IMG/VR virus record: IMGVR_UViG_3300022753_000060
Direction: 5' to 3' (one strand)
Length of the DNA: 64,000 nt
DNA from: a virus
The notes beneath the pieces are model-generated. The model was not told the DNA's origin and made no database searches. It saw nothing but the letters and a program-made list of their open reading frames with translations. A program made the position numbers and the translations under genes. Positions 36,150-53,368 of the stretch are shown here, piece by piece (within the stretch, counting starts at the first letter, position 1; each line of letters opens with the position of its first letter).

Positions 36150-37421
36150 ATGGAGATAAAATTACCAAAATATGTTGAATTACTAATAAACATGTTAAAT
36201 GAAAATGGTTATGCAGCATATGCAGTTGGTGGCGCTATTAGAGATTCTATATTAGGTATTGAACCAAAAGATTGGGATATAGCAACAAGTGCTTTACCTG
36301 CTGAAACAAAGAAACTATTTGAAGATAATAGTTTTCACAAGAGTGATATGGATATTTATTTTAAAGTTATTCCAACAGGAGAAAAATATGGCACTATGAC
36401 TATTGAAGTTATAGAAAAATATAAATTAAATAAATATGAACATCTTGCAGGTATTTATGAAATAACCACATTTAGATATGATAGCGATTACACTGATGGT
36501 AGAAGACCAAATAATGTAACTTTTGGTGAATCTATTATAGATGATTTAGATAGAAGAGATTTTACTATGAATGCTATTGCTTATAACCCATTAGTAGGTA
36601 TAGTAGACCCACATAATGGTGTTGAAGATATTAAAAATAAAATAGTTAAAGCAGTAGGAGACCCACAGGTTAGAATAAAAGAAGATGCTTTGAGAATTTT
36701 AAGGGGCATTAGATTTGCTTGTAAGTATAATTTTGAGTTAGAGAATGCAACAAGCAATGTTATAGCGGGTACTGGTAGTCTCTTAAAGAATGTATCAAAA
36801 GAAAGAATTACTGAAGAAGTTAAGAAGATATTAGAATATTCAAAAGGTAATTCTGAAACTTTAAATTCAACAATAGAAACACTAGCAGAGATATTTGAGA
36901 TACCTCAAAACAAAGTAAGTAAATGGGGTAGTAACCAGGTCATCATAGATATAGATAATGACAACCCACCTATGTTAAAGTTGTATTCAATATTGAATAA
37001 GTATAAGTCAATGATAGATGCAGAAATTTGGATGAGGTTATATAAATATAGTAACCAACAAATCAAAGAGGTTATTAGCTATTATAAGATGTCAAAGTTT
37101 ATGGAAGATGTTCAGCAACAAGATATTGTCCTAACAATCAAGCAACTATTCAATAAATTTGAACATGCATACGTATGCAAGTATTTGGGTATTTACACAA
37201 AAATAGAAGGAATAGATTTGTCAGAAATTACAAGTCAACCATATAGATTACAAGACTTGGCAATAGATGGGCACTTTCTTCAATCTACATTTGATATAAG
37301 TGGTGAGAAGATAGGTAAGGTTCTTAATTTCTTATTAGGCAAAGTTATGGAGAATTCCCAACTAAACACAATAGAAACTTTATCTGAAATTACAAGGAGA
37401 TACTTAAATGGAGAAAATTAA
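36150..37421 (+). CDS. cca: CCA-adding enzyme / tRNA nucleotidyltransferase (class II)
   Basis: AVGGAIRDSILG...DWDIAT (GGxxRD..DxD head), RRDFTMNAIAY; 423 aa. Confidence 0.7.
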   Translation: MEIKLPKYVELLINMLNENGYAAYAVGGAIRDSILGIEPKDWDIATSALPAETKKLFEDNSFHKSDMDIYFKVIPTGEKYGTMTIEVIEKYKLNKYEHLAGIYEITTFRYDSDYTDGRRPNNVTFGESIIDDLDRRDFTMNAIAYNPLVGIVDPHNGVEDIKNKIVKAVGDPQVRIKEDALRILRGIRFACKYNFELENATSNVIAGTGSLLKNVSKERITEEVKKILEYSKGNSETLNSTIETLAEIFEIPQNKVSKWGSNQVIIDIDNDNPPMLKLYSILNKYKSMIDAEIWMRLYKYSNQQIKEVISYYKMSKFMEDVQQQDIVLTIKQLFNKFEHAYVCKYLGIYTKIEGIDLSEITSQPYRLQDLAIDGHFLQSTFDISGEKIGKVLNFLLGKVMENSQLNTIETLSEITRRYLNGEN

Positions 37422-37818
37422 GATATATGCTGATGGTGCTTGTAGAGGAAATCAATTTGCAGAAAACATAGGTGGTTATGGGATAGTGCTTCAGTACCAA
37501 GATCAATATAAAGAACTAAAAAATGCTTTTCGAAATACAACTAATAATAAAATGGAAATTTTATCTGTGATAGAAGGGTTAAAAGCATTAAAAGTATATG
37601 ATATTCCTATTGAAGTATATTCAGATAGCCAATATGTAGTTAGTACAATTAATTTAAATTGGAATAAAAAAGCTAATTTAGATTTATGGGAAGAACTGTA
37701 TACATATATAAATAAATTTAAAGATATTAGATTCATAAAAGTAAAAGGACACTCAGATAATGAATTTAATAACAGGGCAGATAAATTAGCAAATGAAGCT
37801 ATGGATGCTTTAAAATAA
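37408..37818 (+). CDS. rnhA: ribonuclease H (type 1)
   Basis: IYADGACRGN, NNKMEILSVIEGL, VYSDSQYVV, KVKGHSDNEFNNRADKLA (D-E-D-D residues in order). Confidence 0.8.
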   Translation: MEKIKIYADGACRGNQFAENIGGYGIVLQYQDQYKELKNAFRNTTNNKMEILSVIEGLKALKVYDIPIEVYSDSQYVVSTINLNWNKKANLDLWEELYTYINKFKDIRFIKVKGHSDNEFNNRADKLANEAMDALK

Positions 37819-37831
37819 AAGGAGAGAACAA

Positions 37832-38389
37832 ATGATCTATAATAGCATTTATTTGAATAAAAAACATGAAAAAGTTTGTAAGGAATTCTATAAAAGGTTT
37901 GCTTACGGTGAACAATATTTAAGTTTGAATCATATTGGTGAAATAGAAGAGATGCCTAGAGATTATTATTGGCAAGAAAGAGAGGTATATAATATAATAT
38001 TACCTTATATAAATTTACTTAAAAATAAAGGGGTAAAGGATAAAGATTTATATGGCAGATATGGATTTGTATCTCTAGTATATAACCTACAAGTAGCTTA
38101 TAATAAAGTTAAAAATAATGCTTTAACAATTATAAATAGATATGCTTTCCCAACTGCTCTAATAGAAGATGGTTCAGTTGATATCGATAGCTTAGAAGAA
38201 GAGGGATTAGCTCCAGGGAAAATCTTAGTTTATAGACAAGGTGCTCAAAAACCAGATACTAGTCAGGATTTCTTAAAAACAGATATTTTATTTTCATTAT
38301 CTACTTATGAAGAGCACCTGGAAACTGAAATGCGTAAAATGTATGATTTATTCTTAGAAGGATGGTATAAAAACAATGAGAAAATATAA
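37832..38389 (+). CDS. hypothetical protein
   Basis: 185-aa ORF. Confidence 0.45.
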   Translation: MIYNSIYLNKKHEKVCKEFYKRFAYGEQYLSLNHIGEIEEMPRDYYWQEREVYNIILPYINLLKNKGVKDKDLYGRYGFVSLVYNLQVAYNKVKNNALTIINRYAFPTALIEDGSVDIDSLEEEGLAPGKILVYRQGAQKPDTSQDFLKTDILFSLSTYEEHLETEMRKMYDLFLEGWYKNNEKI

Positions 38390-39014
38390 TAAAATTGAAG
38401 CAATTTATGCAAGAGATGAAGAAACTAAAAAGACTATAGATAAATATAGAAACCCAACTATAGAATTTTTAAAAGATTTAACTTGGCAATTTACTGAAAA
38501 AGTGGATGGTACTAATGTTAGAGTTCATTGGGATGGTCATAAAGTAACGTTTGGTGGAAGAACAGATAATGCATCAATGCCTGCATTTTTAGTAAATAGA
38601 CTAAATGAATTATTCGGTGGTAATGCTAATGAAGAACTATTTGAACAAAAATTTGGTGAAATGGAAGTAACCTTATATGGTGAAGGATATGGACCTAAAA
38701 TTCAATCAGGTGGAGCTTATAGAAATGATGTAGATTTTATTTTATTTGATGTTCAAATAGGAGATAATTATCAACCAAGAGAATCTGTAGAAGATATAGC
38801 GAATTACTTTAAATTAGATATTGTACCTATTTTATTTGAAGGTCCATTAAGTAGAGGGATCAACTATGTTAAAACAGAAAGAAGAAGTGCTATAGCAAAG
38901 AATGGGCACTTGATTGAAGGACTTGTTGCAAGACCTAAATTTGAATTGAAAGATAGATGCGGGAATAGAATTATTGTTAAAATAAAATATGAAGATTTAA
39001 AGGATATATTATAA
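38376..39014 (+). CDS. ATP-dependent RNA ligase-like adenylyltransferase (Rnl2-like nucleotidyltransferase domain)
   Basis: Motif I EKVDGTNVRV (KxDG), III DFILFDV, IV HLIEGLVARP, V KIKYEDLK; 212 aa. Confidence 0.5.
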   Translation: MRKYNKIEAIYARDEETKKTIDKYRNPTIEFLKDLTWQFTEKVDGTNVRVHWDGHKVTFGGRTDNASMPAFLVNRLNELFGGNANEELFEQKFGEMEVTLYGEGYGPKIQSGGAYRNDVDFILFDVQIGDNYQPRESVEDIANYFKLDIVPILFEGPLSRGINYVKTERRSAIAKNGHLIEGLVARPKFELKDRCGNRIIVKIKYEDLKDIL

Positions 39015-39015
39015 T

Positions 39016-39225
39016 ATGAAACAGTTTATTAGAAATAAGACTTTTGAAACAAACTCAAGTTCTACTCATAGTTTAACTTTGGATAACCATAATAAAATAA
39101 CAGATCTACTATATGAAGCTATAAACAAAATTGAAAGTATAGATAGTATGGATGAAGTATATGCAATTCTTGGATTAATGAAACGAGCAGAACGTTTATT
39201 ACTAGATAATTTAGGAGATTATTAA
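39016..39225 (+). CDS. MKQxIR-TFETNSSSxHS family protein (short paralog 3)
   Basis: MKQFIRNKTFETNSSSTHSLTL; 69 aa. Confidence 0.5.
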   Translation: MKQFIRNKTFETNSSSTHSLTLDNHNKITDLLYEAINKIESIDSMDEVYAILGLMKRAERLLLDNLGDY

Positions 39226-39227
39226 AT

Positions 39228-40100
39228 ATGAAACAACTTATTAGAAATTCAACCTTTGAAACAAATAGCAGTTCAATGCATAGTTTAGTTATATCTAAGA
39301 AAGTTAAACCTTACTCAGTTAGTGATAAATCATTGCACTATTATGGCAATGATTTTGAACTATTTGGATGTTGTGATACTCATTCTTTTGGAAGAACACC
39401 TTTTGAAGTTTTATCTAGTCCAAAAGATAAACTAAGATATTATGTAGCACATTATGTAGGTTTCAAAAAAGAAAAAGAAAGGTTAAAAGAAGTTGAAGAT
39501 CTTGTTTATGAGCTTACAGGATGTTCTAGGGAGAAAATAAAATTATATTGTGAAGAAGAATACCCTTGGAAAAAGAAACCAGAAAAATCTTATGGATATG
39601 CTGGTATAAATGACACAGGCGAAGATGTATTTGATTATATTGAAAAGAATAATATATCTTTGAGAGAATTTATCCTTGACCCTAGGTACACTGTTATTGT
39701 AGATGGTGATGAATACCAAGAGTTTAAAAAATTATTTAAAAAAGGTATTATTGATTTAGATAATATAGATTATATATCTAGTGGTAAGCATTTTTGGATT
39801 GATGATATTAAAACATTTAGTCTATATTACATTAATAGATTTGTAAATGATGATGTTTATAATGAATTTATGGAAGAGATAGATAATTATAATAATGAAT
39901 TTATAAAATGTATTGAAATAGAAGATGAAGAGGATGTTGATATAAATCAATCAGCTATGATAACATTTGCATCAGTATTAGAATGTTTTAAGCATTTAAC
40001 TTATGGCAGAAATATACCAATCAAACTTATTCTTAAAACTCATTCACTAGATGATTTTAAACCAATATTAAAATATATAAGTTTAGAAGTTGATAATTAA
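39228..40100 (+). CDS. MKQxIR-TFETNSSSxHS family protein (paralog 4)
   Basis: MKQLIRNSTFETNSSSMHSLVI; 290 aa; intrinsic terminator (AGTTGATAATTAATTATCAACT + T-run) at 40088-40120. Confidence 0.6.
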   Translation: MKQLIRNSTFETNSSSMHSLVISKKVKPYSVSDKSLHYYGNDFELFGCCDTHSFGRTPFEVLSSPKDKLRYYVAHYVGFKKEKERLKEVEDLVYELTGCSREKIKLYCEEEYPWKKKPEKSYGYAGINDTGEDVFDYIEKNNISLREFILDPRYTVIVDGDEYQEFKKLFKKGIIDLDNIDYISSGKHFWIDDIKTFSLYYINRFVNDDVYNEFMEEIDNYNNEFIKCIEIEDEEDVDINQSAMITFASVLECFKHLTYGRNIPIKLILKTHSLDDFKPILKYISLEVDN

Positions 40101-40340
40101 TTATCAACTTTTTTATTTTTCTGTTAAAATTAGTTTACTTTTTAATCATAATCTTATATAATATTTATAATTAAAAGGAGTAGCTATGGTAGTAGTAAAA
40201 GAATCTTATAATATAAATAATGAATTAGAACTTAATATATGTTCTACTTTTCTGTATATTTTATATAAAGATAAGATAAACAAAGGTTTAGCAAATATCA
40301 CATTTGAAAATAATATTTTATATTACAGGGAGATTGTATA

Positions 40341-41510
40341 ATGAATAAAAAGTTAATATGTGTTACACCTAACAATAATAATAAGTTTTACAATATGACA
40401 GATCTCGGTGACGGTACTTTCGAAGTTGAATATGGAAGAGTTGGAGCTACAAGTGTAAAAACTTCTTACTCTATGTCTCAATGGGATAAAAAATACAATG
40501 AAAAAATAAAGAAAGGGTATGTTGATATAAGTGAATCTTTATCTCAAGACATTAAAAAAGCTTCTTTAAAGATAGATGATAAAGATGTTAAAGATTTAAT
40601 TTCATTTCTTATGAGTTGTGCAAAACAGTCTATCAAATCAAATTATGAAGTATCACTGGACTCAATTTCAGATATTCAAATAAATAAAGTCCAAGAAATA
40701 TTAGACGAGTTGAATGACTTGGATTTAACAAAATTACCTTATAATATTATAAATAACTATCTTCAAAAGGTGTATACAACTATACCAAGAAAAATGTATG
40801 ATACAAGAGCTTTTTTCTTAAAACCTAATTACACTAAACAAGAATTTATAGAATTATTACAAGAAGAACAAAATAAACTCAACACACTTAAATCACAAGT
40901 TAATTTGAATACCCAATCTAATAAAATTGAAGATATAACATTAGAAACACTTGGGTTTGATTGTAGATTAGCAACGCAAGAAGAAAGAGAATTTATAGCT
41001 GCCAATACTGATTTTAGAGTTAATAATCAAAAAATATTTAGAGTTACAAATCATGAAACTGAGAAAGTATTTAATCCAGATAATCTTAAAACAAGACTTT
41101 TATATCATGGAAGTAGAAATGAGAATTATCTAAGCATTATGCAAACAGGGTTAAAAATTAGACCTAAGGGTGTTGTCTTAACAGGTTCGATGTTTGGTAA
41201 TGGTATATATGCAGCTAATAAAGCAAGAAAAAGCATTGGTTATACATCATTAAGAGGTAGTTATTGGGCATCTGGCTCAAGTAATAAAGCTTATCTAACT
41301 ATATTTGAATTTGCTACAGGTCAAGAATGGCGAATTTTAGATAATGAAAGTTATAAATCTTGGATGGGCAGGATTACTGAAGATCAAGTTAAATCACAAA
41401 AATGTAATTCAGTATTTGCTAGAGGTGGTGCTGATTTAAGAAACGATGAATATATTGTATATAATAGTAATCAATGTACTATTAGATATATAATTGAAAT
41501 AAATAATTAA
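40341..41510 (+). CDS. PARP-like ADP-ribosyltransferase with WGR domain
   Basis: N-term DGTFEVEYGRVGATSVKTSY (WGR-like); catalytic LLYHGSRNENYLSIMQTGL...GSMFGNGIYAANKARKSIGY...DEYIVYNSNQCTIRYIIE (PARP H-Y-E signature). Confidence 0.6.
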   Translation: MNKKLICVTPNNNNKFYNMTDLGDGTFEVEYGRVGATSVKTSYSMSQWDKKYNEKIKKGYVDISESLSQDIKKASLKIDDKDVKDLISFLMSCAKQSIKSNYEVSLDSISDIQINKVQEILDELNDLDLTKLPYNIINNYLQKVYTTIPRKMYDTRAFFLKPNYTKQEFIELLQEEQNKLNTLKSQVNLNTQSNKIEDITLETLGFDCRLATQEEREFIAANTDFRVNNQKIFRVTNHETEKVFNPDNLKTRLLYHGSRNENYLSIMQTGLKIRPKGVVLTGSMFGNGIYAANKARKSIGYTSLRGSYWASGSSNKAYLTIFEFATGQEWRILDNESYKSWMGRITEDQVKSQKCNSVFARGGADLRNDEYIVYNSNQCTIRYIIEINN

Positions 41511-41524
41511 GGAGATATGATATT

Positions 41525-41989
41525 ATGTTAATAGTTTTATTTTTAATTTCTGTAGGTATACTTATATCAGGTTTGTTAGTATATAAACTAACAGATTATG
41601 GAGATGAAAATCCATATAGTTATATAGGTATTATTTTAGGCATTCTTTTATCGCTTGGTGCTTTTGTAACACTTATAGTAGGTGGGATAACTATATCAGA
41701 AAGTAGTATTATTGATGATAAAATACAAATGTACACTGAGGAGAATACAAATATCGAAACAACTATCACAGCTACAGTAGAGAAATATCTTGAGCACGAA
41801 TTAAACATATTTGATAGTTTACAAGGTGAAGACATACAAACGCTATTGGTAGTATACCCAGAAATTAATAGCAATGAGCTTGTTAAAGCACAAATAGAAG
41901 TGTTTATAGATAACAATAACAAAATAAAAGAATTAAAAGAACAAAAACTAAATATTCAAGTTTGGAAATTTTGGGTTTATTTTGGATAG
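41525..41989 (+). CDS. membrane protein
   Basis: Two N-terminal TM helices; 154 aa. Confidence 0.45.
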   Translation: MLIVLFLISVGILISGLLVYKLTDYGDENPYSYIGIILGILLSLGAFVTLIVGGITISESSIIDDKIQMYTEENTNIETTITATVEKYLEHELNIFDSLQGEDIQTLLVVYPEINSNELVKAQIEVFIDNNNKIKELKEQKLNIQVWKFWVYFG

Positions 41990-42000
41990 GAGGAGAGAAA

Positions 42001-42639
42001 ATGAGATCTATTTTAATTAGTATTAAACCTGAATGGGTTGAGAAAATATTTACCGGTAAGAAAATTCTTGAAATCAGAAAATCAATCCCAAAATGCAATC
42101 TGCCTTGTAAAGTTTATATTTATTGTACTCAATCTACTAAGTATGCTTTTTATCATATTAAAGATGAAAGATTCATGTTATATAAAGGTACTGGAAAGCA
42201 AGTAAATGGTAATTTGAGTTGCGGTACAAAATTAAATGGTAAAGTAGTTGCAGAATTTACATTGCATGATATTGAAACTATTGATAGAGATTATAATGAT
42301 TGGCTACCAAAAAGAATGTATGATATAATGCCAAGTCAATTAGAGGCATCTTGTTTAACTGAAGAGCAACTAGATAATTATGGTAAAGGTAAAACTTTAT
42401 ACGCATGGTGTATAGATGATTTGAAAATTTATAAACAACCAAAAGCGTTAAATGAATTTAAAAAAGACTTAGATTGTGATGATTATCCTTGCAATAAAAA
42501 TAGTGATTGTAAATATAACTATTATGACACAAGTGAAGGTTGTTGGGCTTGTGGGATCGACTTTGATGGTGCAAATTGTATTTATAAACAAATAAATAAA
42601 GCCCCACAAAGCTGGTGTTATGTAGAGGAGATTAAGTAA
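42001..42639 (+). CDS. ASCH/PUA-like domain protein with Cys-rich C-terminus
   Basis: RBS ataggaggagag before ATG 42001; ILISIKPEWVEKIFTGKKILEIRKS. Confidence 0.4.
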   Translation: MRSILISIKPEWVEKIFTGKKILEIRKSIPKCNLPCKVYIYCTQSTKYAFYHIKDERFMLYKGTGKQVNGNLSCGTKLNGKVVAEFTLHDIETIDRDYNDWLPKRMYDIMPSQLEASCLTEEQLDNYGKGKTLYAWCIDDLKIYKQPKALNEFKKDLDCDDYPCNKNSDCKYNYYDTSEGCWACGIDFDGANCIYKQINKAPQSWCYVEEIK

Positions 42640-42640
42640 C

Positions 42641-43375
42641 ATGTATGATTATGAAGATTATTATAGAGAACCATCAGAGATAGAAGATTTATTTAATGAG
42701 TATTCAGCAAAATTACAAACAATGTTAAAGAATGAGATTGTAAATAATGCTAAGAAATATGATGTAAATAAAGATGAAGTTAAAACTATGATGATGGTTG
42801 CGAATGGACTTAAAGAAGAGTATGAAAAGAAACTTGAAGATTTTGATAATGAAATAAGTAAAGCAGCCCAAGAACAACATAATAAATGGTTAGAGAAATT
42901 ACTCCACACTGATATTAAAGTTGGTGATACTGTTTATAAGATATATTCAAATGGGTATACTTATCTAACTTGTCCTTATTGTGAAAATGGAAAAGTTGCA
43001 GTCACTTTAGGTAATAGAATAGAATCTGTTGATTGTCCTATTTGTAAAAATTATAGACCATCTCTACCTAAATATGAGTATAAAAAAGTTAGAGTAAGAC
43101 AATTAAGTATGACTCTCACTTGTTCAGATAAGAATGAAAAAGCTACTCCTTATGTTGATAATTGGGTAGATACATCTAATTATCCTTTTAATAAATTCCA
43201 ATGTAATTGGTGCATTAGAGATGAGAATTGGGACACTTTAACATCTGATAGAACTGCAAAAACAGAAGAACAGGCAAAACTACTTATTACTCATATTAAA
43301 GAAGAAGCAATAAGTAAATTAGAAGAAAAATATGGTAAAGATAAAGTTCAAGATATGTTAAAGGAGATTGAATAA
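42641..43375 (+). CDS. zinc-finger protein
   Basis: CPYCENGK...CPICKN and CNWC motifs; 244 aa. Confidence 0.45.
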   Translation: MYDYEDYYREPSEIEDLFNEYSAKLQTMLKNEIVNNAKKYDVNKDEVKTMMMVANGLKEEYEKKLEDFDNEISKAAQEQHNKWLEKLLHTDIKVGDTVYKIYSNGYTYLTCPYCENGKVAVTLGNRIESVDCPICKNYRPSLPKYEYKKVRVRQLSMTLTCSDKNEKATPYVDNWVDTSNYPFNKFQCNWCIRDENWDTLTSDRTAKTEEQAKLLITHIKEEAISKLEEKYGKDKVQDMLKEIE

Positions 43376-44693
43376 AATGGTTTTAAAAGTATTTGAAGAA
43401 TTTGTAAATGAAATTAACTCTAGTAATTCTAGATTATATAAAGAAGCTGTGTTAGATAAATATAAAGAAAATGAATATGTAAAACAAATAGTTCATTTTA
43501 TATTCAACCCCTATATTGTCACAGGTATCTCAAAAAAGAAAATAGATAGAATTAAATCTTCATTTATAAGTAAAGAAGATATACCAGAAACTTATGATAT
43601 ATTTGACTTACTTAATTATGTTAAGTTGAATAACACTGGTTCAGATTCAACTTTAATTGAAGTCTTAAAATGTGCTATGTCTAATAAAGATTATTCTGAA
43701 CTTATATTTAAAATAGTTTCTAAAGATATTAAATTGGGTATTCAATCAACAACTATAAATAAAATTTGGGGTGATAATTTTATACCTTGCTTCGACGTGA
43801 TGTTAGCACAAAAATATTTTGACAATCCAGATAAACTTGTTCCAGAAGGGATTCAATTTATTTTGACTCCAAAGTTAGATGGTGTCAGATGTGTTTTAAT
43901 TAACGATGGTTTTTCAGGTGCAAAATTCTTTTCCAGACAAGGTCAGTTAATAGAGCAATTGATAGAACTTGAAGAAGAAGCAAAACAGTTACCTATGGGT
44001 TATGTATATGATGGTGAACTACTGTTAGATAACAAAGATAATTTAGAGAGTAAAGATTTATATAGGGCAACTGTAAAAGTTACTAGTGCAGATAAAGAAA
44101 AAACTAATCTTATATTCAATGTTTTTGACATGATTCCAATTACAGATTTTCAAAATGGTTATTGTAATGCGCCTGCATCTTTAAGAAAAGAGCAATTATT
44201 AAAACAATTTACTTTTATGAAATTACCTCATATAGTTGACGTTCCTATCTTATATTATGGTGATGATAAACAGGTTATTACTGAACAATTAGATATTATA
44301 ACAGCTGCTGGAGGTGAGGGTGTCATGATTAATATTGCAGATGCCCCTTATGAATGTAAAAGAAGCAAAGGCTTACTTAAAGTTAAGAAAATGCAAACCT
44401 GCGATGTTAAAGTTGTTGGTATGGAAGAAGGTACAGGAAAAAATAAAGGTAAACTTGGAGCATTAAAGATTGAATTTATTGGTCCTGATGGGTTTACTTA
44501 TCAAAATGATGTAGGTTCGGGTTTGACTGATGAGGATAGAGAGTATTATTGGGATAACCCAGATAAAATTTTAAATAAAATAATTGAAATACAATATTTT
44601 GAAATATCAGCCAATCAACAAGGTACTTTTGGATTAAGGTTTCCTGTATTCAAGTGGATAAGAGAAGATAAGACTGATATATCAATGTATTAA
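43368..44693 (+). CDS. ATP-dependent DNA ligase
   Basis: Motif I TPKLDGVRCV, III YVYDGELL, IV EGVMIN, V LLKVKK; 441 aa. Confidence 0.75.
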   Translation: MNKMVLKVFEEFVNEINSSNSRLYKEAVLDKYKENEYVKQIVHFIFNPYIVTGISKKKIDRIKSSFISKEDIPETYDIFDLLNYVKLNNTGSDSTLIEVLKCAMSNKDYSELIFKIVSKDIKLGIQSTTINKIWGDNFIPCFDVMLAQKYFDNPDKLVPEGIQFILTPKLDGVRCVLINDGFSGAKFFSRQGQLIEQLIELEEEAKQLPMGYVYDGELLLDNKDNLESKDLYRATVKVTSADKEKTNLIFNVFDMIPITDFQNGYCNAPASLRKEQLLKQFTFMKLPHIVDVPILYYGDDKQVITEQLDIITAAGGEGVMINIADAPYECKRSKGLLKVKKMQTCDVKVVGMEEGTGKNKGKLGALKIEFIGPDGFTYQNDVGSGLTDEDREYYWDNPDKILNKIIEIQYFEISANQQGTFGLRFPVFKWIREDKTDISMY

Positions 44694-44704
44694 AGGGGGT
44701 TATT

Positions 44705-45043: not shown

Positions 45044-45072
45044 ACTGTATAATTATATAGGAGAATTTATAT

Positions 45073-46669: not shown

Positions 46670-46673
46670 TAAT

Positions 46674-46991: not shown

Positions 46992-47331
46992 AGAATCAAT
47001 ATTAATAGATACCCAACCAGGTTTTGCTTTTATGCTTCATTATAACTGGGAAAAAGGAGTTATCTGGTTATCTAAGAATAGTTCCAAGAGTAAAAAAGTT
47101 AGATTAACTACAAAAGATGTTTATATAAGTGAAGGTGAAAAGGATAAATTTTATAGATCTAGAACTGGATACGGTCCTGATGTCGAACTAGGTTTGCTTA
47201 AACCTTGTTCTTATATAACCAAAAAAGATAATGAAAATATATTTAATTATTGGGTAAAATTTATGTATGATAGATATATGAATCTTAAACACAAGCAAGA
47301 AGTTATAGATAAAGGAGTTTATAATGGATAA
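46972..47331 (+). CDS. hypothetical protein
   Basis: 119-aa ORF. Confidence 0.45.
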   Translation: MKMQLTKESILIDTQPGFAFMLHYNWEKGVIWLSKNSSKSKKVRLTTKDVYISEGEKDKFYRSRTGYGPDVELGLLKPCSYITKKDNENIFNYWVKFMYDRYMNLKHKQEVIDKGVYNG

Positions 47332-47414
47332 ATATTTAGATAAAGTAGAGAAGAATGGTTCTTTCAAGAAAAATTATTTTCTTGAAAAAGTAGAATTATA
47401 TGAGGAGGAAGAAA

Positions 47415-48569
47415 ATGCTTAAAACTATTCAATTTATGAAGAGTCATGAAAATTGGAGAGAGTTGCTACAAGCTGCTCCTTATAATTTATTCATAAACGA
47501 AGATGAAAATTATGTATTATTAAAATATAATCAAATAAACTCAGATTTTAATGAAGATATATGCAGAGAATGTAGAGGTCTTATTATAGACAAAAATATT
47601 TTAGAGCCAGCAGCTTTATCTTTCTATAAATTTTTTAATGTCCAAGAAAGTTTTGCTGATAAGATAGACTGGGATAGTGCAAAAGTATTAGAAAAAGTAG
47701 ATGGATCTAAGATGCTTGTGTGGTATGATGATTACTTACATAAATGGAGGGTGTCTACTTCAAGTGAATTAGATGCAAGTAATGCTCCTGTTGGAGACTT
47801 TGGAATATCTTTTAGAGATTTATTTGACAGAGCTCTCTCAAATTATACTTTTCCAAACAATTCTTCTATGTTTGAATGCTTGAATAGATTATACTGCTAT
47901 ACATTTGAATTAGTAACTCCAGAATCTAGAGTAGTTGTTCCATATAGAAAAGATGCTTTATACTTGATTGGCGTAAGATGCAAATTCGCATTTGAAGAGT
48001 TAGATCCAAATTCTCTTGAGTTGAGTAAATTTATTAAAACTCCAAAACAATTTCCTTTTCAAAATTTAAAAGAATGCTTGAATAGAGTAGAATATATGGG
48101 CTATGATGAAGAAGGATTTGTTGTAGTAGATAAATATTGGAAAAGAATTAAGATTAAATCACCTGCATACGTAGCTGCACATTATTTAAAAAATAATGGA
48201 GTTAATTCAAGAGCAAAAATTCTTTCAATTATAGAAAAGAATGAGCAATCAGAATTTTTAGGACTATTCCCAGAATATACTGATTTATTTAATGAAATAG
48301 AAACTAAATATAAAGAAATGCAAAATAAAATATATGATGCTATTGATGATATGTTATTTAAAAGTAATACTTTCCTCTATGAAAATGAAAAAGAAAAACG
48401 AAAAGAACTAGCTAATTATATTTTAACTGAACATAAAGACTTATCAGGGTTTCTATTTAAATATTTAGATATAGACCCAATAGAATATTTTATAAAGCAA
48501 GAATGGAAAGAATTATCTAAAGATAAGAAAATGAATTTATTAGGTTATAAATTAGAAAAAGAAGATTAA
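47415..48569 (+). CDS. RNA ligase (Rnl1-like)
   Basis: RBS gaggaggaag before ATG 47415; motif I LEKVDGSKMLVWY (KxDG), IV EGFVVVD, V KIKSP; ~384 aa like T4 RnlA. Confidence 0.55.
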   Translation: MLKTIQFMKSHENWRELLQAAPYNLFINEDENYVLLKYNQINSDFNEDICRECRGLIIDKNILEPAALSFYKFFNVQESFADKIDWDSAKVLEKVDGSKMLVWYDDYLHKWRVSTSSELDASNAPVGDFGISFRDLFDRALSNYTFPNNSSMFECLNRLYCYTFELVTPESRVVVPYRKDALYLIGVRCKFAFEELDPNSLELSKFIKTPKQFPFQNLKECLNRVEYMGYDEEGFVVVDKYWKRIKIKSPAYVAAHYLKNNGVNSRAKILSIIEKNEQSEFLGLFPEYTDLFNEIETKYKEMQNKIYDAIDDMLFKSNTFLYENEKEKRKELANYILTEHKDLSGFLFKYLDIDPIEYFIKQEWKELSKDKKMNLLGYKLEKED

Positions 48570-48654
48570 AAATTTTAAAGTAAACTATGAAAATTAGTTT
48601 ACTTTTTTATTATAATATTATATAATATAAATATAATTAAGTAGGAGATATAAT

Positions 48655-49083
48655 ATGTTTGAATATGCACCAGATATTAAAGTCGGAGATGTATTTACTA
48701 GAATTGATAAAAATGGTAAAGTTTGGAAAGCTGAAGTTATTAACAGAACAGAGTATTTTGTTGATGTTAAGAAAACTCAACAATACCAAATTAAAGTATG
48801 TGATGTTGAACCAATAAGACAAAGGAGATTTTATAATAGTACTTGGCATTCTAAGGATGTTGGCGGTGTGTTTCATTATGAAGATGCTGAACCTACTTCT
48901 GAAAGGGCTCAAATAAATATTGAATATGAAGAGTATGAGACAGGTGAAATAGAAGAAAGTATATGGGGTACATATAAGAAAACCGCAAAAAGACCTACTG
49001 GTAAATATTTTATAGCTATTAAAGAAGATTATAGCAAATATTCACAATATGATAAATTATATTTTATAGATAAAAGGAGTTAA
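48655..49083 (+). CDS. hypothetical protein
   Basis: 142-aa ORF; promoter motif upstream. Confidence 0.45.
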   Translation: MFEYAPDIKVGDVFTRIDKNGKVWKAEVINRTEYFVDVKKTQQYQIKVCDVEPIRQRRFYNSTWHSKDVGGVFHYEDAEPTSERAQINIEYEEYETGEIEESIWGTYKKTAKRPTGKYFIAIKEDYSKYSQYDKLYFIDKRS

Positions 49084-49084
49084 T

Positions 49085-49462
49085 ATGTTAAATAAAATTT
49101 GGAAAGTAAAAGGAAATGAGATCAACACAGTAGCAGAAGTTAAAGATGCTATATATGGTATCATTCTAGAGAATAAATTTGGATCTAGTGTTTATGATAA
49201 AGAATTAATTACCGGTTATAAATTCTCTTATTCAGATGAAGAGATATTTAATAAATTAAATGATTTAAAATTGAATTATAAAATATTTGCTTTAAAGGAA
49301 ATAAAACGACCTGCAATATTCACAGAAGAGATAGATAATATCATAAATGATATCGTAATTGAGAATAAAGATGAATTAGAAGAGTATTCGATTACTGAAA
49401 CAAATATGGATAATCTACTTAAAAAGTTAAAAGAAAAATTGGACATTAAATTAAAGGAGTAG
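49085..49462 (+). CDS. hypothetical protein
   Basis: 125-aa ORF. Confidence 0.45.
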   Translation: MLNKIWKVKGNEINTVAEVKDAIYGIILENKFGSSVYDKELITGYKFSYSDEEIFNKLNDLKLNYKIFALKEIKRPAIFTEEIDNIINDIVIENKDELEEYSITETNMDNLLKKLKEKLDIKLKE

Positions 49463-49467
49463 TAAAT

Positions 49468-51399
49468 ATGATAAATGAATTAAATGAAATATTTGAAGCA
49501 TATTTAAAGGCTACTGGAAAAGATCCTACAGATAATTCTATTAGGTTTGGTGTTGAAAGTGATGCTCTTTGCCATAAAGCAAAAAATTATTTAGATATAG
49601 ATAATACTGGACTATTAAGTGTATTAACTATGAGAGAAGCTTACAAATCTTTTATTAAAGAACATTACTATACTATTGAAGAATTACTTGATGGTAATTG
49701 GTATGAAGAAAAGAAAAAATTTGTTCATGTTGAATATTTATTGAATTCAGGTAAAGCCGGAGAAGTGTACCATAAATTCATAGATTTAATCATTAAACAT
49801 GCTTCAGTGTTAGGTAAAAATTATACAGAAGAAGATATTGAATCTATTAAAAAGATAGAAAATATCATAACTAAAGCTATTGAAAAGTTTAATAATAAAT
49901 ATTCTTTTAAGCATGAGAAATTTAGTGAAGGTGAAATTAAAATAAATAAAAATGTAACAATACTCCCTAGATTATATAGATTTCAACATTTAAAATTATT
50001 TGTAGATAAAATGAAAAATGCAAGTGAAGATAATTTTATATGTATGGCTTTGATAGATAGAACAAACGAAAAGATTGAAGATGAATACTATGATAATAAC
50101 TTAGATTCTTTCTTTGCTTTTGGTTTTAAGAATAATGGTGTCGTATGGGTAGTATCAGATAGGGTAACTTATGATAGTCCTGAAGGTGCTTTTAAGTCTA
50201 GAAACCCTGGCAGAGCTATGAGAGATAAGATAGACTATGATTGGTTACCTTATTATAAATTAGATAAGATAAAGCAATCAAATGAGCATGTGAATCAAGT
50301 ATTATTACCTTTTAATGATAACGCAAAAGAAAGTGGCTATAATATAGTTGATCTATTTGATGATGAAGGTGTTATATATTCTACTTTAATAATGACTTTA
50401 ATTTACAACAAATATTTCTGCAATTCAATAGAAGAAAACTTTAATAGGAAATACTTCTCGTCTGAAGTAAAATTATTACCACTCAATGATTCTAAAGCTT
50501 TAGTATCTTCTAATGAGCTACAGTTGCCTATTCTTCCGAATAATATCAAAGCAGATACTTATATCTATGAAGGTAAATCATATTCAAATTCATTATTTGA
50601 TTATTTAATTGATCAATACCCATTAAAAACAGAATTACCTATATTAAAAAGTTTTATTGGAGATAAGGAAACAGCTGAAAAATATATCTGGTGGAATATC
50701 AGAAAACAACAAAAGGATCATATAGAAGCTTGTTTAAAAGAGCAAGATAACTATGAAGGGCGTAAAAAATTAGAAGACTGGCACCAAAATAATATTTCTA
50801 AAAATATTAAATCCATAGTTAAAATAATGATAGAAACACCTGATAGAGATGGGTTTAAAGATAACTATAAGAATAGTTATTCTAACAATAATCAAGATAA
50901 TAGAAAAATGTTTTGGGAAGCATTTAGAGATAATGACGATTTAAATACTTATAGTTTAAAAACTTTTGAAAATGAGCATAAACAATCTTTTGCTAGATAT
51001 GATGGTTATACTGAAACTGACTATGGTAATATTTACTATAGTTTATATGGTACGAGAAATTATATTTGGTTTGCTAATGACAATGATAGAAAGTACTGTG
51101 AAATAGAATTAATATTAAGAAGCCATAGCGATTTAGAAAAATTTTTTAATATAACAAATGAAGAAATACCTCAGGTACTGAGAAAACATTTTTATTCTAG
51201 ATCTAGTGCATGTACATTATATTCATGGAAACCTTATACTGGAAATAGTATTTTAGAATTTACTGATCCAATGAATGAGATAAAAGATCCATTTGAAGAT
51301 TTTGGGTGTCATATAAGTATAGTATTATCTAAATCAAAATTAAAAGAGTTAAAAAGAAAAATTCAGATAAAAGCTCATGAAATTAATTTACTTTTATAA
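49468..51399 (+). CDS. hypothetical large protein
   Basis: 643-aa ORF, no recognisable motif by eye. Confidence 0.5.
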   Translation: MINELNEIFEAYLKATGKDPTDNSIRFGVESDALCHKAKNYLDIDNTGLLSVLTMREAYKSFIKEHYYTIEELLDGNWYEEKKKFVHVEYLLNSGKAGEVYHKFIDLIIKHASVLGKNYTEEDIESIKKIENIITKAIEKFNNKYSFKHEKFSEGEIKINKNVTILPRLYRFQHLKLFVDKMKNASEDNFICMALIDRTNEKIEDEYYDNNLDSFFAFGFKNNGVVWVVSDRVTYDSPEGAFKSRNPGRAMRDKIDYDWLPYYKLDKIKQSNEHVNQVLLPFNDNAKESGYNIVDLFDDEGVIYSTLIMTLIYNKYFCNSIEENFNRKYFSSEVKLLPLNDSKALVSSNELQLPILPNNIKADTYIYEGKSYSNSLFDYLIDQYPLKTELPILKSFIGDKETAEKYIWWNIRKQQKDHIEACLKEQDNYEGRKKLEDWHQNNISKNIKSIVKIMIETPDRDGFKDNYKNSYSNNNQDNRKMFWEAFRDNDDLNTYSLKTFENEHKQSFARYDGYTETDYGNIYYSLYGTRNYIWFANDNDRKYCEIELILRSHSDLEKFFNITNEEIPQVLRKHFYSRSSACTLYSWKPYTGNSILEFTDPMNEIKDPFEDFGCHISIVLSKSKLKELKRKIQIKAHEINLLL

Positions 51400-51443
51400 G
51401 TAATTATTGTATAATATAAATAATTAATAAGGAGATTATAAAA

Positions 51444-51914
51444 ATGGATAAAGAATTCGAAAAACAGTTAGAGGATTTTTATCAAGGTTATAGGGATAGA
51501 GCCAACTGGCCTTTGTGCGATGGGATACGGGTTGACGACCTTGCAAGAGACACCGCCAAATTTTTTAAAAAATTTAAAAGCGTGCAATTTACTAATACTA
51601 AAGATGAGCAAATTAAAAGAAGAATTGCTATCTATGAAAAACAATTTATTGAGCAAACCAATGAGAATTACGAACTCAAACAACAACTTGCAGAGAAAGA
51701 AAAAGAGTTTAATTGGCTACATCAAAAGTTTGCAAAATTTGTAGAAAGCAACCAAGATAAAATCTCATTCGCAGTAGAGCGAATTAAAAATTTAAAATCG
51801 TTGATATTAAATAGCTGGCGAAAGAATTATTGTAACTTATTTTTAGACGATATTGAAGAAATAATCGACAACCAAGTAGAACAACTCAAAAAGGAGATGA
51901 TGAAAAGTGAGTAA
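51444..51914 (+). CDS. hypothetical protein
   Basis: 156-aa ORF, RBS aaggagatt. Confidence 0.45.
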   Translation: MDKEFEKQLEDFYQGYRDRANWPLCDGIRVDDLARDTAKFFKKFKSVQFTNTKDEQIKRRIAIYEKQFIEQTNENYELKQQLAEKEKEFNWLHQKFAKFVESNQDKISFAVERIKNLKSLILNSWRKNYCNLFLDDIEEIIDNQVEQLKKEMMKSE

Positions 51915-52395
51915 ATGTGTTAAATGCGGAAATGAAATTTTAACAGGAGATATCCATTGGGAAATGGGCTTATGTAACAACTGTTATAATGAATTATATA
52001 AAGACCATAAAACTCATATTAGTTTGGATAATATGTGGTTGAAACTTGCTCAAGATTTTAGAGATGAGAACGAAAAATTGCAAGACAAGGTAACCGACCT
52101 AGAAGCAAAACTAGTATTGAAATCTTCATTTAGTAAGTTTACATTATCTGACGAGTTATATAAATTATATATAAATTTGGAAAGAGAATATACAAAATCA
52201 AGCCAAGAAATTGCTGAGAGAGGTAAAGAAATTGAAAAATTAAGAGTTATGTTAGATACCTCTTTAACAAAACTCCATAAAGCAAGGAGGAAAATAAATA
52301 GAGTATTATTGAAAATAGCTAAATTTGAAGCCGAATTAGATAATTATACTATACAAAATGAAACTTTCTTAAAGAGAGGCAATCAGCATGAATAA
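51907..52395 (+). CDS. coiled-coil protein with N-terminal zinc ribbon
   Basis: CVKCGN...CNNC then heptad-rich sequence. Confidence 0.4.
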   Translation: MSKCVKCGNEILTGDIHWEMGLCNNCYNELYKDHKTHISLDNMWLKLAQDFRDENEKLQDKVTDLEAKLVLKSSFSKFTLSDELYKLYINLEREYTKSSQEIAERGKEIEKLRVMLDTSLTKLHKARRKINRVLLKIAKFEAELDNYTIQNETFLKRGNQHE

Positions 52396-53368
52396 AGATA
52401 TAAAAATAATAGGATTAGACATAGCAGAAGATAGGTTACCTAAACTGGTTGTGATGTGTGGTTTGCAAGGTTCCGGTAAATCAACTATTGCAGAAGAATT
52501 GAGTTTGAAATATAACATGATTGTATTATCTAGTGATAAATTAAGAAAAGAATTTCCAGATGAGAACAATGAATTTATTTTTAGACGCTTATATAATCAA
52601 GCAAATATAGCTTTGAAACAAGGATTAAATGTTATCCTAGATGCAACTAATATTACAATTAAATCTAGAAAACAAATATTTTTAAATATAAAAGAACCTT
52701 GTAAAAAGATTTGTTACATAGTAAACACGCCTTATGAAGTATGTATAGAAAGAGTTAAAAAAAGAAATGAAGATATAAATTCTCATCAAGTTCCATTAGA
52801 AGTGGTTAGAAGATATTTAGAATCTTTTGAAGTACCTTTTTATGAAGAAGGATGGGACAACATATTACTGTATAATATTATAGGGCATAATGAGTCTGTA
52901 GAAAATTTTAATAATATGATGAAATCTGCATTTGGATTTGACCAACATAATAAACATCATACTCAATTATTACATGAACATTTAGAATCGGTTGCTAATC
53001 AATTATATGATATAGATAATGTTTTATATGAAGCAGGATTATTACATGATATAGGCAAACTTGATACGCAGACATATAAAGAAAATGACCCTAATGCACA
53101 TTACTATAATCATGCCAATGTTGGTGCTTATAAAGTATTATGTAATTATATGTCTTGGTATATGATAGAACAATTAGGAGAAGATTATCCTAAATATGAT
53201 ACTACATTAGATATAGTATTTTACATAAATTATCATATGCATATGTATAATATTAAAACTGAAAAATCTGAAAGGAAGTGGAGACAAGTATTTGGGGATA
53301 TAAAATTTAATAATTTAAAATTGTTAAATGAAGCTGACCAATTTAATCATAGTAAGGAGATAAAATAA
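52388..53368 (+). CDS. polynucleotide kinase-like P-loop kinase fused to HD phosphohydrolase domain (RNA end-healing enzyme candidate)
   Basis: Walker A MCGLQGSGKST (cf. T4 Pnk GxPGSGKST), D-x-T later; C-terminal HD motif LLHDIGK and H..H pairs. Confidence 0.55.
   Translation: MNKDIKIIGLDIAEDRLPKLVVMCGLQGSGKSTIAEELSLKYNMIVLSSDKLRKEFPDENNEFIFRRLYNQANIALKQGLNVILDATNITIKSRKQIFLNIKEPCKKICYIVNTPYEVCIERVKKRNEDINSHQVPLEVVRRYLESFEVPFYEEGWDNILLYNIIGHNESVENFNNMMKSAFGFDQHNKHHTQLLHEHLESVANQLYDIDNVLYEAGLLHDIGKLDTQTYKENDPNAHYYNHANVGAYKVLCNYMSWYMIEQLGEDYPKYDTTLDIVFYINYHMHMYNIKTEKSERKWRQVFGDIKFNNLKLLNEADQFNHSKEIK

Follow-up and report, generated by a model that had tools for sequence, protein, structure and literature searches.

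What do the RNA-processing enzymes encoded near the tRNA genes of an uncultured phage act on, and do they serve its own tRNAs? We addressed this question in a 64-kb stretch (hereafter, the window) of the IMG/VR record IMGVR_UViG_3300022753_000060. A preliminary description of this sequence had placed an RNA and tRNA repair toolkit between positions 36150 and 53368, consisting of a CCA-adding enzyme, an Rnl2-like ligase core, an Rnl1-like RNA ligase, a polynucleotide kinase (Pnk)-like protein fused to an HD phosphoesterase, RNase H and an ATP-dependent DNA ligase. All six genes are present at or near these coordinates on the + strand of the window in the list of open reading frames (ORFs), and domain searches upheld the identity assigned to each of them. 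For comparison we used a set of related phage loci (L003-L099), among which L003 and L016 belong to the same contig, that of a 155-kb relative whose proteins carry the NCBI name 'uncultured Clostridium sp.'. A nucleotide search against 50,697 phage records returned no matches, and the phage has no close cultured relative. We consider it probable that the region constitutes the enzyme arm of a phage tRNA maintenance system with two overlapping jobs, the maturation of a CCA-less tRNA with anticodon UCA, tRNA(UCA), and the repair of tRNAs.

A conserved block of RNA-processing genes

The genes for an RlaP-family protein, the CCA enzyme, the Rnl2-like ligase, the Rnl1-like ligase and the Pnk-HD protein form a conserved block in related metagenomic phages of about 140-160 kb. 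In L003, they are found within 10 kb in the order RlaP, small ORF, CCA enzyme, Thg1, 170-amino acid (aa) ORF, 212-aa ligase, further ORFs, Rnl1, a YafQ-like gene and kinase-HD, with the block proteins being 40-68% identical to their counterparts in the window. The persistence of this synteny at such divergence is the best indication that the genes act jointly on tRNA. The proposed likeness to the T4 Pnk/Rnl system of end healing and sealing, complemented by CCA addition, is supported; the related phages also show conserved synteny with RlaP and, in a relative, with Thg1. The proposal of a toolkit co-located at 36150-53368 holds for the genes found there, but the kit reaches well outside that range, to RlaP, a metallophosphoesterase, a protein with a predicted Ro60 fold and perhaps an SPFH protein.

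The RlaP-family Pol-beta nucleotidyltransferase is encoded at 33142..34230 (+ strand; PF10127, 5.6e-18; phrog_388, 8.5e-50). Its membership in the family is indicated by a PF10127 score of 66 bits against a cutoff of 23, and by its presence in the same block as the ligases both in the window and in L003, where a 59% identical ortholog heads the block. Members of this family add 1-2 nucleotides to damaged RNA (PMC12776372). A conserved small protein of 143 aa lies between RlaP and the CCA enzyme (35717..36148, +) and has a 43% identical ortholog in the same position of L003. Similarly, a conserved 643-aa protein is encoded between Rnl1 and Pnk-HD (49468..51399, +); its C-terminal part is 34% identical to the product of an L003 gene, a 647-aa counterpart that adjoins RlaP on its upstream side. 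Searches of the 643-, 290-, 185-, 222- and 143-aa ORFs returned no family or PDB matches, the 643-aa ORF being without matches in Pfam, PHROG and PDB and the 143-aa ORF without matches in Pfam.

The gene at 36150..37421 (+) encodes a class II CCA-adding tRNA nucleotidyltransferase of 423 aa that has no HD domain of its own. Pfam recognizes in it a PolyA_pol head domain (9e-31), together with PolyA_pol_RNAbd and tRNA_NucTran2_2, and the protein also matches the tRNA nucleotidyltransferase family phrog_2244 (8e-54) and the NCBIfam CCA tRNA nucleotidyltransferase model NF009814 (4e-73), the latter with 246.7 bits, just under the cutoff of 290. The class II motifs A (GGAIRD, DWD), B (RRDFTMNA) and D (EDALR) are present, as are the neck and body domains, and the L003-block ortholog is 40% identical. 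The addition of CCA by this enzyme, rather than of CC or A, is putative.

Two RNA ligases accompany this enzyme. The first is a minimal ATP-dependent RNA ligase of 212 aa (38376..39014, +), assigned through PF09414 (RNA_ligase, 2.4e-18) and its motifs, that comprises only the nucleotidyltransferase domain and resembles Rnl2 and DRB0094 (Rnl5). It matches the T4 Rnl2 structure 1s68 (3.5e-4) and, weakly, the NCBIfam models TIGR02306 (RNA_lig_DRB0094, 2e-9) and TIGR02307 (Rnl2, 9e-7), carries the motifs EKVDGTN, YGEGYG, EGLVAR and VKIKY, and has a 212-aa ortholog in L003 that is 68% identical. Since the protein ends at residue 212, just past motif V, its earlier label of 'ligase core' is accurate. 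The C-terminal domain that Rnl2 needs for nick sealing is absent, as is the N-terminal OB-like module of Rnl5/DRB0094, the TIGR02306 match covering model positions 145-333 of 341 with 36.6 bits against a cutoff of 151. No ligase-domain matches were obtained with Pfam or PHROG in the adjoining ORFs.

The second is an Rnl1-like RNA ligase of 389 aa encoded at 47400..48569 (+). The start at 47415 given previously corresponds to an internal ATG, an alternative start that is also the one used in the Joint Genome Institute (JGI) gene calls. This protein matches phrog_562 (8e-46) and the T4 Rnl1 structures 2c5u (1.4e-5) and 5tt6 (about 1e-5), and motifs I, III, IV and V align with those of T4 Rnl1 as EKVDGS (with Lys99), FELV, EGFVVV and KIKS. 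With regard to the Rnl1-specific C-terminal domain, which confers tRNA specificity, the PDB alignment ends at residue 291, and TIGR02308 (1e-12; 48 bits against a cutoff of 242) aligns up to residue 354 of 389. PF09511 has no match in this protein and is present in its L003 and L006 orthologs.

A kinase-HD protein with the kinase first

The gene at 52388..53368 (+) encodes a putative bifunctional end-healing enzyme, in which Pfam, NCBIfam and AlphaFold2/Foldseek analyses delimit a kinase domain (residues ~18-160) followed by an HD phosphoesterase domain (residues ~185-320). Pfam detects AAA_33 (5e-24) and HD (6.7e-5), and NCBIfam detects HDIG (7e-8). Among PDB sequences, the best match of the kinase domain is the Clostridium thermocellum (Cth) Pnkp kinase (4gp7, 1.4e-8), and the Capnocytophaga Pnkp kinase is also matched. 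The AlphaFold2 model has a predicted local distance difference test (pLDDT) score of 93.5, and its best Foldseek matches are mammalian PNKP, PSTK and Cth Pnk. The domain searches that had been set beforehand as a test of the assignments therefore place the kinase closest to polynucleotide kinases and match the ligases to RNA-ligase families, and the outcome of a dNMP kinase with DNA-only ligases was not obtained. A reading of the protein as a dNMP or thymidylate kinase was rejected, thymidylate-kinase PHROGs giving weak matches of 3e-5 to 5e-4.

Both domains look active, since their catalytic residues are invariant in 51 homologs. In the kinase, these residues are G25, S29, G30, K31 and S32 (GxxGSGKS), D50 (SSD), R53, D85 (DATN) and R126, and the motifs align with those of the Cth Pnkp kinase. 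In the HD domain, they are the ligands H191, H220-D221, H242, H283 and D317, which provide the full H...HD...D metal-binding motif. When compared as a profile with solved structures, the HD domain matched only the HD region of the Aquifex class II tRNA nucleotidyltransferase (3wfp, 1e-3) and then Cas3 HD domains, and NCBIfam also matches to it the HD region of an actinobacterial CCA enzyme. As judged by these profile matches, the domain is of the type found in class II CCA enzymes. The HD domain of the E. coli CCA enzyme is reported to strip tRNA ends of 2',3'-cyclic phosphate (PMC6961547, citing Yakunin 2004). We regard the protein encoded at 52388 as a putative 5'-kinase and 2',3'-cyclic phosphodiesterase/3'-phosphatase.

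Searches of Pfam, NCBIfam and PHROGs gave no match to a C-terminal HAD (DxDxT) phosphatase domain in this protein. The preliminary description had taken the presence of an HD domain in the place of HAD as an unusual arrangement. This view did not hold up: HD-Pnk enzymes have already been characterised, the treatment of these kinases in PMC7824862 mentions phosphatase partners that are 'in a small number ... calcineurin-like and HD-like', and Tsamsa-type phages share the protein. What differs from the characterised HD-Pnk enzymes is the domain order only, with the kinase at the N-terminus. More than 500 homologs were found, many of them 45-60% identical over their full length and located on metagenomic contigs of 140-160 kb, and an identical protein is present on many contigs of about 154.4 kb. 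Among deposited phage genomes, 39 also show the kinase-first order, with colinearity over 93-95% of the length; they are chiefly those of Bacillus Tsamsa-like siphophages, together with Lysinibacillus LC76P1 and Bacillus phage G. Because it recurs in deposited phages and metagenomic homologs, the arrangement is not unique, although we know of no biochemical study of the kinase-first variant. In Tsamsa, there is an overlap between the kinase-HD gene and the 3' end of an Rnl1-like gene, and a DNA ligase and another RNA ligase are encoded nearby. The PNK of phage RM378 was rejected as an instance of the same architecture, for its kinase is C-terminal and it aligns only via that half, with phrog_6931 matching the 52388 kinase at profile positions 183-339 of 343.

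A CCA-less tRNA(UCA) abutting a candidate ribozyme

A class II tRNA of the opal-suppressor type, with anticodon UCA, is located at 15215..15309 (+; ARAGORN; Rfam tRNA, 38 bits), just downstream of the gene for a DUF2828 protein with a predicted Ro60 fold. Its anticodon loop reads CUUCAAA and no CCA was seen on inspection of 15215-15311. The tRNA array of the window contains 16 canonical tRNA genes (8807..11936, +; ARAGORN, Rfam and inspection of 3' ends), all of which encode CCA, as do two interrupted tRNAs at 8316 and 9846. The earlier statement that several tRNA-like genes lack an encoded CCA is thus correct for the RNAs at 7995 and 15216, but overstated in view of these 16 canonical genes.

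Directly at the 3' end of tRNA(UCA) we identified a candidate self-cleaving ribozyme of the hepatitis delta virus (HDV)-like, theta type (15310..15365, +, with G1 at 15309 or 15310), which makes the earlier suggestion that the kit matures the CCA-less suppressor tRNA more concrete; the maturation step itself is a proposal that we develop below. A descriptor scan of both strands of the window gave its best matches at 15309/15310-15365, compared to 0, 0, 0, 0 and 1 matches in five shuffled windows. P1 can be drawn as GCTCA/TGAGC, or as GGCTCA/TGAGCU with a G1.U pair; P2 is ATGAGTAAGT/ACTTACTCAT, also written AUGAGUAAGU/ACUUACUCAU; and P3 is ACC/GGT (GGU in the RNA). J4/2 is CCAA, and the 8-nucleotide (nt) L3 can form P1.1. 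The element therefore has the HDV-like layout, with a nested double pseudoknot of P1, P2, P3 and P1.1, a G1 at the cleavage site, a C in J4/2 and a position at a tRNA 3' end. A second, weaker descriptor match directly downstream (15371-15437), with a 7-bp P1 (GTAACTT/AAGTTAC) and no P1.1, could represent a degenerate copy in tandem or have arisen by chance.

Comparison with the related loci supports the pairing of tRNA and ribozyme. Orthologs of tRNA(UCA) with the same CUUCAAA loop follow the Ro60-like gene in L014 and L016, where the ribozymes are fuller, with a 7-bp P1 including G1.U, a GUAAUG-like P4 and CUAA in J4/2, and where P1 and P2, though different in sequence from those of the window, stay complementary. 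The L015 ortholog encodes CCA and lacks the ribozyme, and the L013 copy is degenerate in tRNA as well as ribozyme. Across IMG/VR loci, 9 of 10 descriptor matches are located directly at the 3' end of a tRNA or tRNA-like sequence that lacks CCA, and none is found beside a CCA-encoding tRNA; the tenth lies inside a Ro60-like ORF and is probably a false positive. In these nine matches, P1 and P2 covary freely and L3 is conserved (UYCAYGU). The same scan detected no ribozyme after the RNA at 7995. Theta ribozymes have been described abutting CCA-less tRNAs of gut phages, one in five of which are suppressors (PMC10879173).

No convincing in-frame TGA or TAG read-through gene was found within the window when stop-codon recoding was looked for. 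A transfer-messenger RNA (tmRNA) is present in L015 (4212-4604) and L016 (3401-3783), with Rfam scores of 66-83 bits and the tags ANNFAYAA and ANNIAIAA, and none was detected in the window. L016 also encodes a release-factor homolog (17559-18629; PCRF/RF-1). The occurrence of tmRNA, release factor and UCA tRNA hints at a manipulation of translation termination.

A proposed route of tRNA(UCA) maturation and tRNA repair

HDV-type cleavage is established to place a 2',3'-cyclic phosphate on the upstream fragment. Such an end cannot be extended directly, for CCA addition needs a free 3'-OH, and a cyclic phosphodiesterase/phosphatase step is therefore required. Starting from what is directly established, namely the gene identities, the intact catalytic motifs, the conserved synteny and the ribozyme-tRNA junction with its covariation, we infer the following enzymatic steps. 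The tRNA(UCA) would be transcribed as a fusion to the theta ribozyme and cut at its 3' end, leaving the cyclic phosphate. A phosphoesterase would then open and remove this group; the likeliest enzyme for this step would be the HD domain of the kinase-HD protein. Finally, the phage CCA enzyme, lacking an HD domain of its own, would add CCA to the healed tRNA(UCA).

The alternative candidate for the healing step is a metallophosphoesterase of the lambda-phosphatase/ApaH-like type encoded beside the tRNA array (12479..13219, +; Metallophos, 2.7e-16). It matches phrog_246 (2e-28) and the phosphatase region of bacterial Pnkp (4e-6), and its gene is found upstream of the Ro60-like gene in all four of L013-L016, either adjacent or with 1-2 small ORFs in between. 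Both CthPnkp and lambda phosphatase are reported to show 2',3'-cyclic phosphodiesterase activity (PMC2190708). That one or other of these phosphoesterases supplies the missing step, turning theta-cleaved tRNA-2',3'>P into a substrate of the CCA enzyme, is a tentative proposal, which we hold as a reasonable possibility short of a probable one. In theta-ribozyme phages, CCA enzymes are enriched about 250-fold and 'RNA ligase, DRB0094 family' about 140-fold, and neither the cyclic-phosphate product nor healing enzymes are mentioned in that account (PMC10879173). A healing step by the HD domain or the metallophosphoesterase would explain the enrichment. Furthermore, if such a step exists, expression of the suppressor tRNA depends on phage enzymes and the timing of its activation is directly testable.

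The repair arm is proposed by analogy with T4. Host or phage tRNAs cut by putative host anticodon nucleases would be mended by the same proteins: the kinase would phosphorylate the 5'-OH and the HD domain would clear the 3' end, RlaP would restore 1-2 lost nucleotides, the Rnl1-like ligase, the minimal Rnl2/DRB0094-type ligase or both would reseal the anticodon loop, and the CCA enzyme would mend 3' tails.

Several observations weigh against this combined scheme. The Pnk-HD gene lies 37 kb from tRNA(UCA), while the 12479 phosphoesterase gene is only 2 kb away from it. The CCA enzyme is not needed for the canonical tRNAs, since 16/16 encode CCA. The ribozyme of the window has a short P1 (5-6 bp) and an essentially missing P4, its cleavage register is ambiguous by 1 nt, and Rfam HDV families gave no match to it at the gathering score or at E<=1, so that the call is founded on the descriptor and the covariation. 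In some libraries, the kinase scores about equally for the PSTK/KTI12 and PNK families. Finally, a DNA ligase, an RNase H and a PARP-like gene are interspersed among the RNA genes in the window.

The fact that the 16 canonical tRNAs need no CCA addition also fits a rival view, in which the kit serves pure counter-defence in the manner of T4, reversing only the cuts of host anticodon nucleases while host enzymes handle the ribozyme product. The composition of the kit agrees with the published RNA-repair syntax of phages (PMC7824862), and RlaP, together with Thg1 in the relative, are repair-type enzymes. This view does not account for the specific enrichment of CCA enzymes and DRB0094-type ligases in theta-ribozyme gut phages (PMC10879173), and it leaves unexplained why the CCA-less tRNA is paired with a ribozyme when the CCA-encoding L015 ortholog has none. 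We consider it unlikely that counter-defence is the whole function of the kit.

Interrupted tRNA genes and the RNA ligases

The tRNA array of the window and of its relatives includes tRNA genes interrupted in the anticodon loop. The tRNA-Leu(UAA) gene at 8316..8452 (+) carries a 49-nt mini-tRNA-like insert between U34 and A35, made up of an acceptor-like helix of 6-7 bp, a T-arm and ACCA. L013 and L014 have the same insert interior (100% conservation), and compensatory changes are seen in its closing helix and in four stems of the outer tRNA. Interrupted tRNA-Leu(UAA) genes are found at 5056-5192 in L013, 3734-3869 in L014 and, with a 130-nt insert, 6921-7137 in L016; L015 has an uninterrupted homolog with the loop CUUAAAA (CTTAAAA in the DNA). 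These genes point either to a novel splicing route or to non-decoding tRNAs.

Inserts of 65-130 nt occur in tRNA(CAU), tRNA-Tyr and tRNA-Leu genes of the relatives, and most of them fold cloverleaf-like in minimum free energy predictions. In particular, tRNA(CAU) or tRNA-Tyr(GUA) genes with 65-88-nt anticodon-loop inserts are located at 5328-5481 in L013, 4174-4329 in L014, 5005-5145 in L015 and 8087-8260 in L016, and one of these inserts, with CCA at its end, amounts to one tRNA inside another. Pattern scans of IMG/VR with the conserved 34-nt core of the insert, exact and degenerate, gave 0 matches, and a literature search returned no account of tRNA-shaped inserts in anticodon loops or of their splicing.

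The tRNA(CAU) gene of the window (9846..10373, +; ARAGORN) differs in kind, with a 451-nt insert between U36 and A37. An ORF within this insert (9905-10318), preceded by its own Shine-Dalgarno sequence, encodes a PD-(D/E)XK homing-endonuclease homolog of the I-Ssp6803I family (PF11645, 1.6e-19). The outer tRNA is perfect, and its alleles at the corresponding Thr-Met-Tyr position of L013 and L014 are uninterrupted. The last base of the 5' exon is U and that of the insert is G, which is also the case in group I introns, and only about 37 nt of the insert lie outside the ORF. A group I intron was rejected: there was no Intron_gpI match at E<=10 and no P3-P9 core was detectable. Examination by eye of the insert junctions for an archaeal bulge-helix-bulge revealed no convincing 3-4-3 motif, and no EndA homolog was found. 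The 272-nt spacer preceding this gene (9574-9845) has no counterpart in L013 and L014, and its predicted folding is not superior to that of shuffled sequences (z = -0.28). Other long, non-coding spacers of the array (200-350 nt) are located at 8453-8806, 8882-9085, 9161-9419, 10462-10724 and 11652-11859.

If functional, the interrupted tRNAs must be spliced, and the phage ligases are the natural candidates for the joining step. In such a splicing kit, which could operate in addition to repair, the ligases would join the two halves of insert-bearing tRNAs after excision by a host or phage nuclease. To our knowledge, bacteria lack a ligase for tRNA splicing. T4 Rnl1 naturally acts on a nick in the anticodon loop, exactly the geometry that excision of these inserts would create. 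The interrupted tRNAs keep perfect, covarying cloverleaves, and their inserts show conservation together with mini-tRNA or cloverleaf folds. Furthermore, three phages carry both such tRNAs and the kit: that of the window, that of the L003/L016 contig and that of the L014 contig, which encodes P0002. Against splicing, no endonuclease has been identified, the literature holds no account of it that we found, and the insert boundaries defy a single rule. Excision by RNase P and RNase Z as one rule for all nested inserts was rejected, as the Leu-type boundaries do not fit it; Leu-type inserts end in ACCA or ACUA, and CAU-type inserts have no such tail.

We consider a splicing kit doubtful as an explanation of the enzyme set, somewhat more so than counter-defence, and we grant just as low a likelihood to the claim that the phage ligases splice the tRNAs with tRNA-shaped inserts in their anticodon loops. 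That at least one of the two novel activities is real, be it healing of the theta-cleaved tRNA end or ligase splicing of interrupted tRNAs, seems to us a substantial possibility, if slightly less than an even one. Should splicing occur, these ligases would be the first tRNA splicing ligases of bacterial viruses and would define a protein-dependent splicing pathway.

A Ro60-fold protein and its tRNA-like RNAs

The gene that separates the metallophosphoesterase from tRNA(UCA) (13390..14895, +) encodes a candidate Ro60-like RNA-binding protein, with a TROVE helical ring and a vWA domain, annotated as DUF2828/DUF7788 (Pfam, 7e-44 and 2e-36) and belonging to phrog_850, 'RNA-binding protein' (2e-132). 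The Ro60 assignment comes from a fold search with an AlphaFold2 model (pLDDT 78.5), in which the best 13 PDB matches are all Ro60/TROVE proteins aligned over the full length (E-values of 3e-9 to 9e-5; TM-scores of 0.39-0.60), including the Ro60 of Thermus phage phiLo, Xenopus Ro and Deinococcus Rsr. The link between DUF2828 and Ro60 was seen in the fold search only, single-sequence and profile comparisons giving none.

Upstream of this gene, a CCA-less RNA at 7995..8114 (+; Rfam tRNA, 40.6 bits) has tRNA-like acceptor, D and T arms and a short anticodon-like hairpin; about 49 nt are inserted into the 5' strand of its anticodon stem and hold a conserved hairpin and a CUGCAA/ACAGCAA-type motif. 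Orthologs are present in L013, L014 and L015, and the anticodon stem covaries. Of 80 IMG/VR loci fetched via the DUF2828 protein, 73 contain 1-5 such RNAs (112-165 nt) on the same strand just upstream, and 177 of the 194 RNAs carry the hairpin and the ACAGCAA-type motif. Bacterial and phage Ro60 genes adjoin tRNA-like Y RNAs, of which YrlA can serve as a substrate for RNase P and for CCA addition (PMC4201824). We therefore read the 7995 RNA as a candidate Ro60-associated, Y-RNA-like RNA. Its earlier treatment as an ordinary tRNA awaiting CCA is not sustained, since it belongs to this Ro60-linked class of insert-bearing RNAs. A weaker tRNA-like element lies at 7863-7930, with a sub-threshold Rfam score of 25.6 bits, a perfect 7-bp acceptor (GGATATA/TATATCC) and a T-arm, no CCA and an irregular anticodon region.

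Taken together, the DUF2828/DUF7788 protein and the tRNA-like genes look like a large, cryptic phage Ro60/Y-RNA-like module, with binding of these RNAs by the protein being putative. The Ro60-fold protein and its tRNA-like RNA could be scaffold or quality-control parts of the tRNA maintenance system, as could perhaps the SPFH/Band-7 protein encoded at 31482..32528 (+; PF01145, 1e-23), a possible scaffold whose membership in the kit is uncertain. SPFH modules are reported to be among the cofactors of RNA-repair systems named by Burroughs & Aravind (2016).

Neighbouring genes with probable DNA-related roles

The preliminary description had counted RNase H and DNA ligase among the toolkit parts. 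The RNase H gene (37408..37818, +; PF00075, 1e-25) and the ATP-dependent DNA ligase gene (43368..44693, +; PF01068 and PF14743; phrog_114, 1e-92), whose product is 39% identical to Tsamsa gp178, are more simply explained as replication and DNA-repair genes: RNase H is probably involved in replication and the ligase probably in replication or repair. A third gene, between these two (40341..41510, +), encodes a PARP catalytic domain (PF00644, 3.8e-24; phrog_23333, 7e-51) with a weak WGR domain (3e-4), and could sense or modify nucleic-acid ends. We treat all three as neighbours with DNA-related roles because they are missing from the compact L003 block, in which the position of RNase H is occupied by the Thg1 gene.

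The location of these three genes among the RNA genes of the window could nevertheless be taken to mean that the kinase-HD protein works with them in DNA end-processing, on DNA nicks or breaks, as proposed for mammalian PNKP and for the Deinococcus DRB0098 operon. Mammalian PNKP is the best fold match of the kinase, and the characterised HD-Pnk enzymes are reported to act on both DNA and RNA. In L003, on the other hand, Pnk-HD stands beside Rnl1 together with the CCA enzyme, Thg1 and RlaP, with no DNA ligase in those 10 kb, the Tsamsa kinase-HD gene overlaps Rnl1, and the HD domain belongs with those of tRNA nucleotidyltransferases. We deem a DNA end-processing role improbable as the explanation of this set. 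A PSTK/KTI12-type kinase acting on aminoacylated class II tRNA(UCA), for instance as Ser-tRNA, is far less credible still: the best NCBIfam match of the kinase is PSTK (TIGR03574, 5e-17), Pfam gives KTI12 (4.6e-14), PSTK structures are among the best fold matches and ARAGORN labels the tRNA 'SeC', but the PSTK score of 62 bits is far under the cutoff of 290, the PDB sequence search gives Pnkp kinases and no PSTK, the orthologous tRNAs of L014 and L016 have ordinary 7/5 acceptor/T geometry, and the kinase is fused to an RNA-end phosphoesterase domain and has Rnl1 as its gene neighbour in relatives.

Elsewhere in the window, the ORF of the anaerobic ribonucleotide reductase NrdD (25015-28110) contains a GIY-YIG domain (residues 480-555) between two NRDD matches, which suggests an in-frame endonuclease or an intein-like insertion. 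The SHMT gene of L016 is likewise split by a GIY-YIG gene.

Comparison with known systems

One of the closest known systems is the pair of T4 Pnkp and Rnl1, which counters PrrC. Both phages carry tRNA genes and combine a 5'-kinase fused to a 3'-phosphoesterase with an Rnl1-family ligase that has motifs I, III, IV and V. T4 Pnkp has a HAD (DxDxT) phosphatase where the phage studied here has an HD domain, and this phage adds to the T4 set an RlaP, a CCA enzyme, a second, minimal ligase and a Ro60-like protein. The HD-Pnk enzymes of Runella slithyformis, Deinococcus (DRB0098) and phage RM378 also join an HD phosphoesterase and a P-loop kinase in one protein, and the Runella gene adjoins a ligase gene. 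In those enzymes, the HD domain is N-terminal and the kinase C-terminal; the order is reversed in this phage, as in Tsamsa-like Bacillus phages. The kinase-then-HD protein is a compact and abundant natural representative of the fusion, with a high-confidence AlphaFold2 model and clear catalytic residues.

At the level of gene content, the sets of large phages surveyed by Iyer et al. (2021, PMC7824862) are described as including Rnl1, Rnl2, RlaP, CCA enzyme, Thg1 and TROVE with a tRNA-like partner, beside tRNA arrays. The window displays the same repair syntax in a phage of about 154 kb, below the jumbo range, from an uncultured lineage. In what that survey sets out on repair, the kit is not linked to ribozyme-processed tRNA. 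The Ro60 (Rsr)/YrlA systems resemble the DUF2828 module in that a Ro60-fold protein is encoded beside one or several tRNA-like non-coding RNAs. The protein of the window, in contrast, is unrecognisable as TROVE by sequence and has no PDB sequence match, and its RNAs differ from YrlA in topology, keeping a tRNA-like 5'/3' acceptor stem and bearing their insert in the anticodon stem.

The theta units of Kienbeck et al. (2024, PMC10879173) share with this phage a ribozyme that abuts a CCA-less, suppressor-type tRNA, and a genome that encodes a CCA enzyme and a DRB0094-type ligase. That study centres on UAG-to-Gln recoding, whereas the suppressor of this phage is one for UGA, with a long variable arm, and the theta copy of the window has shortened P1 and P4 in comparison with the units reported there. 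Taken by itself, the gene set is one more example of the known phage tRNA-repair kits. Three aspects go beyond anything that we found described: the kinase-then-HD order with an HD domain of the CCA-enzyme type; the need for end healing that would arise between theta-ribozyme cleavage and CCA addition; and the presence, alongside the kit, of tRNAs with nested inserts and of a cryptic module of Ro60 and tRNA-like RNA. The second of these would link two hitherto unjoined literatures: theta ribozymes release tRNA with an end that must be blocked, and the phages that carry them are enriched in CCA enzymes and ligases.

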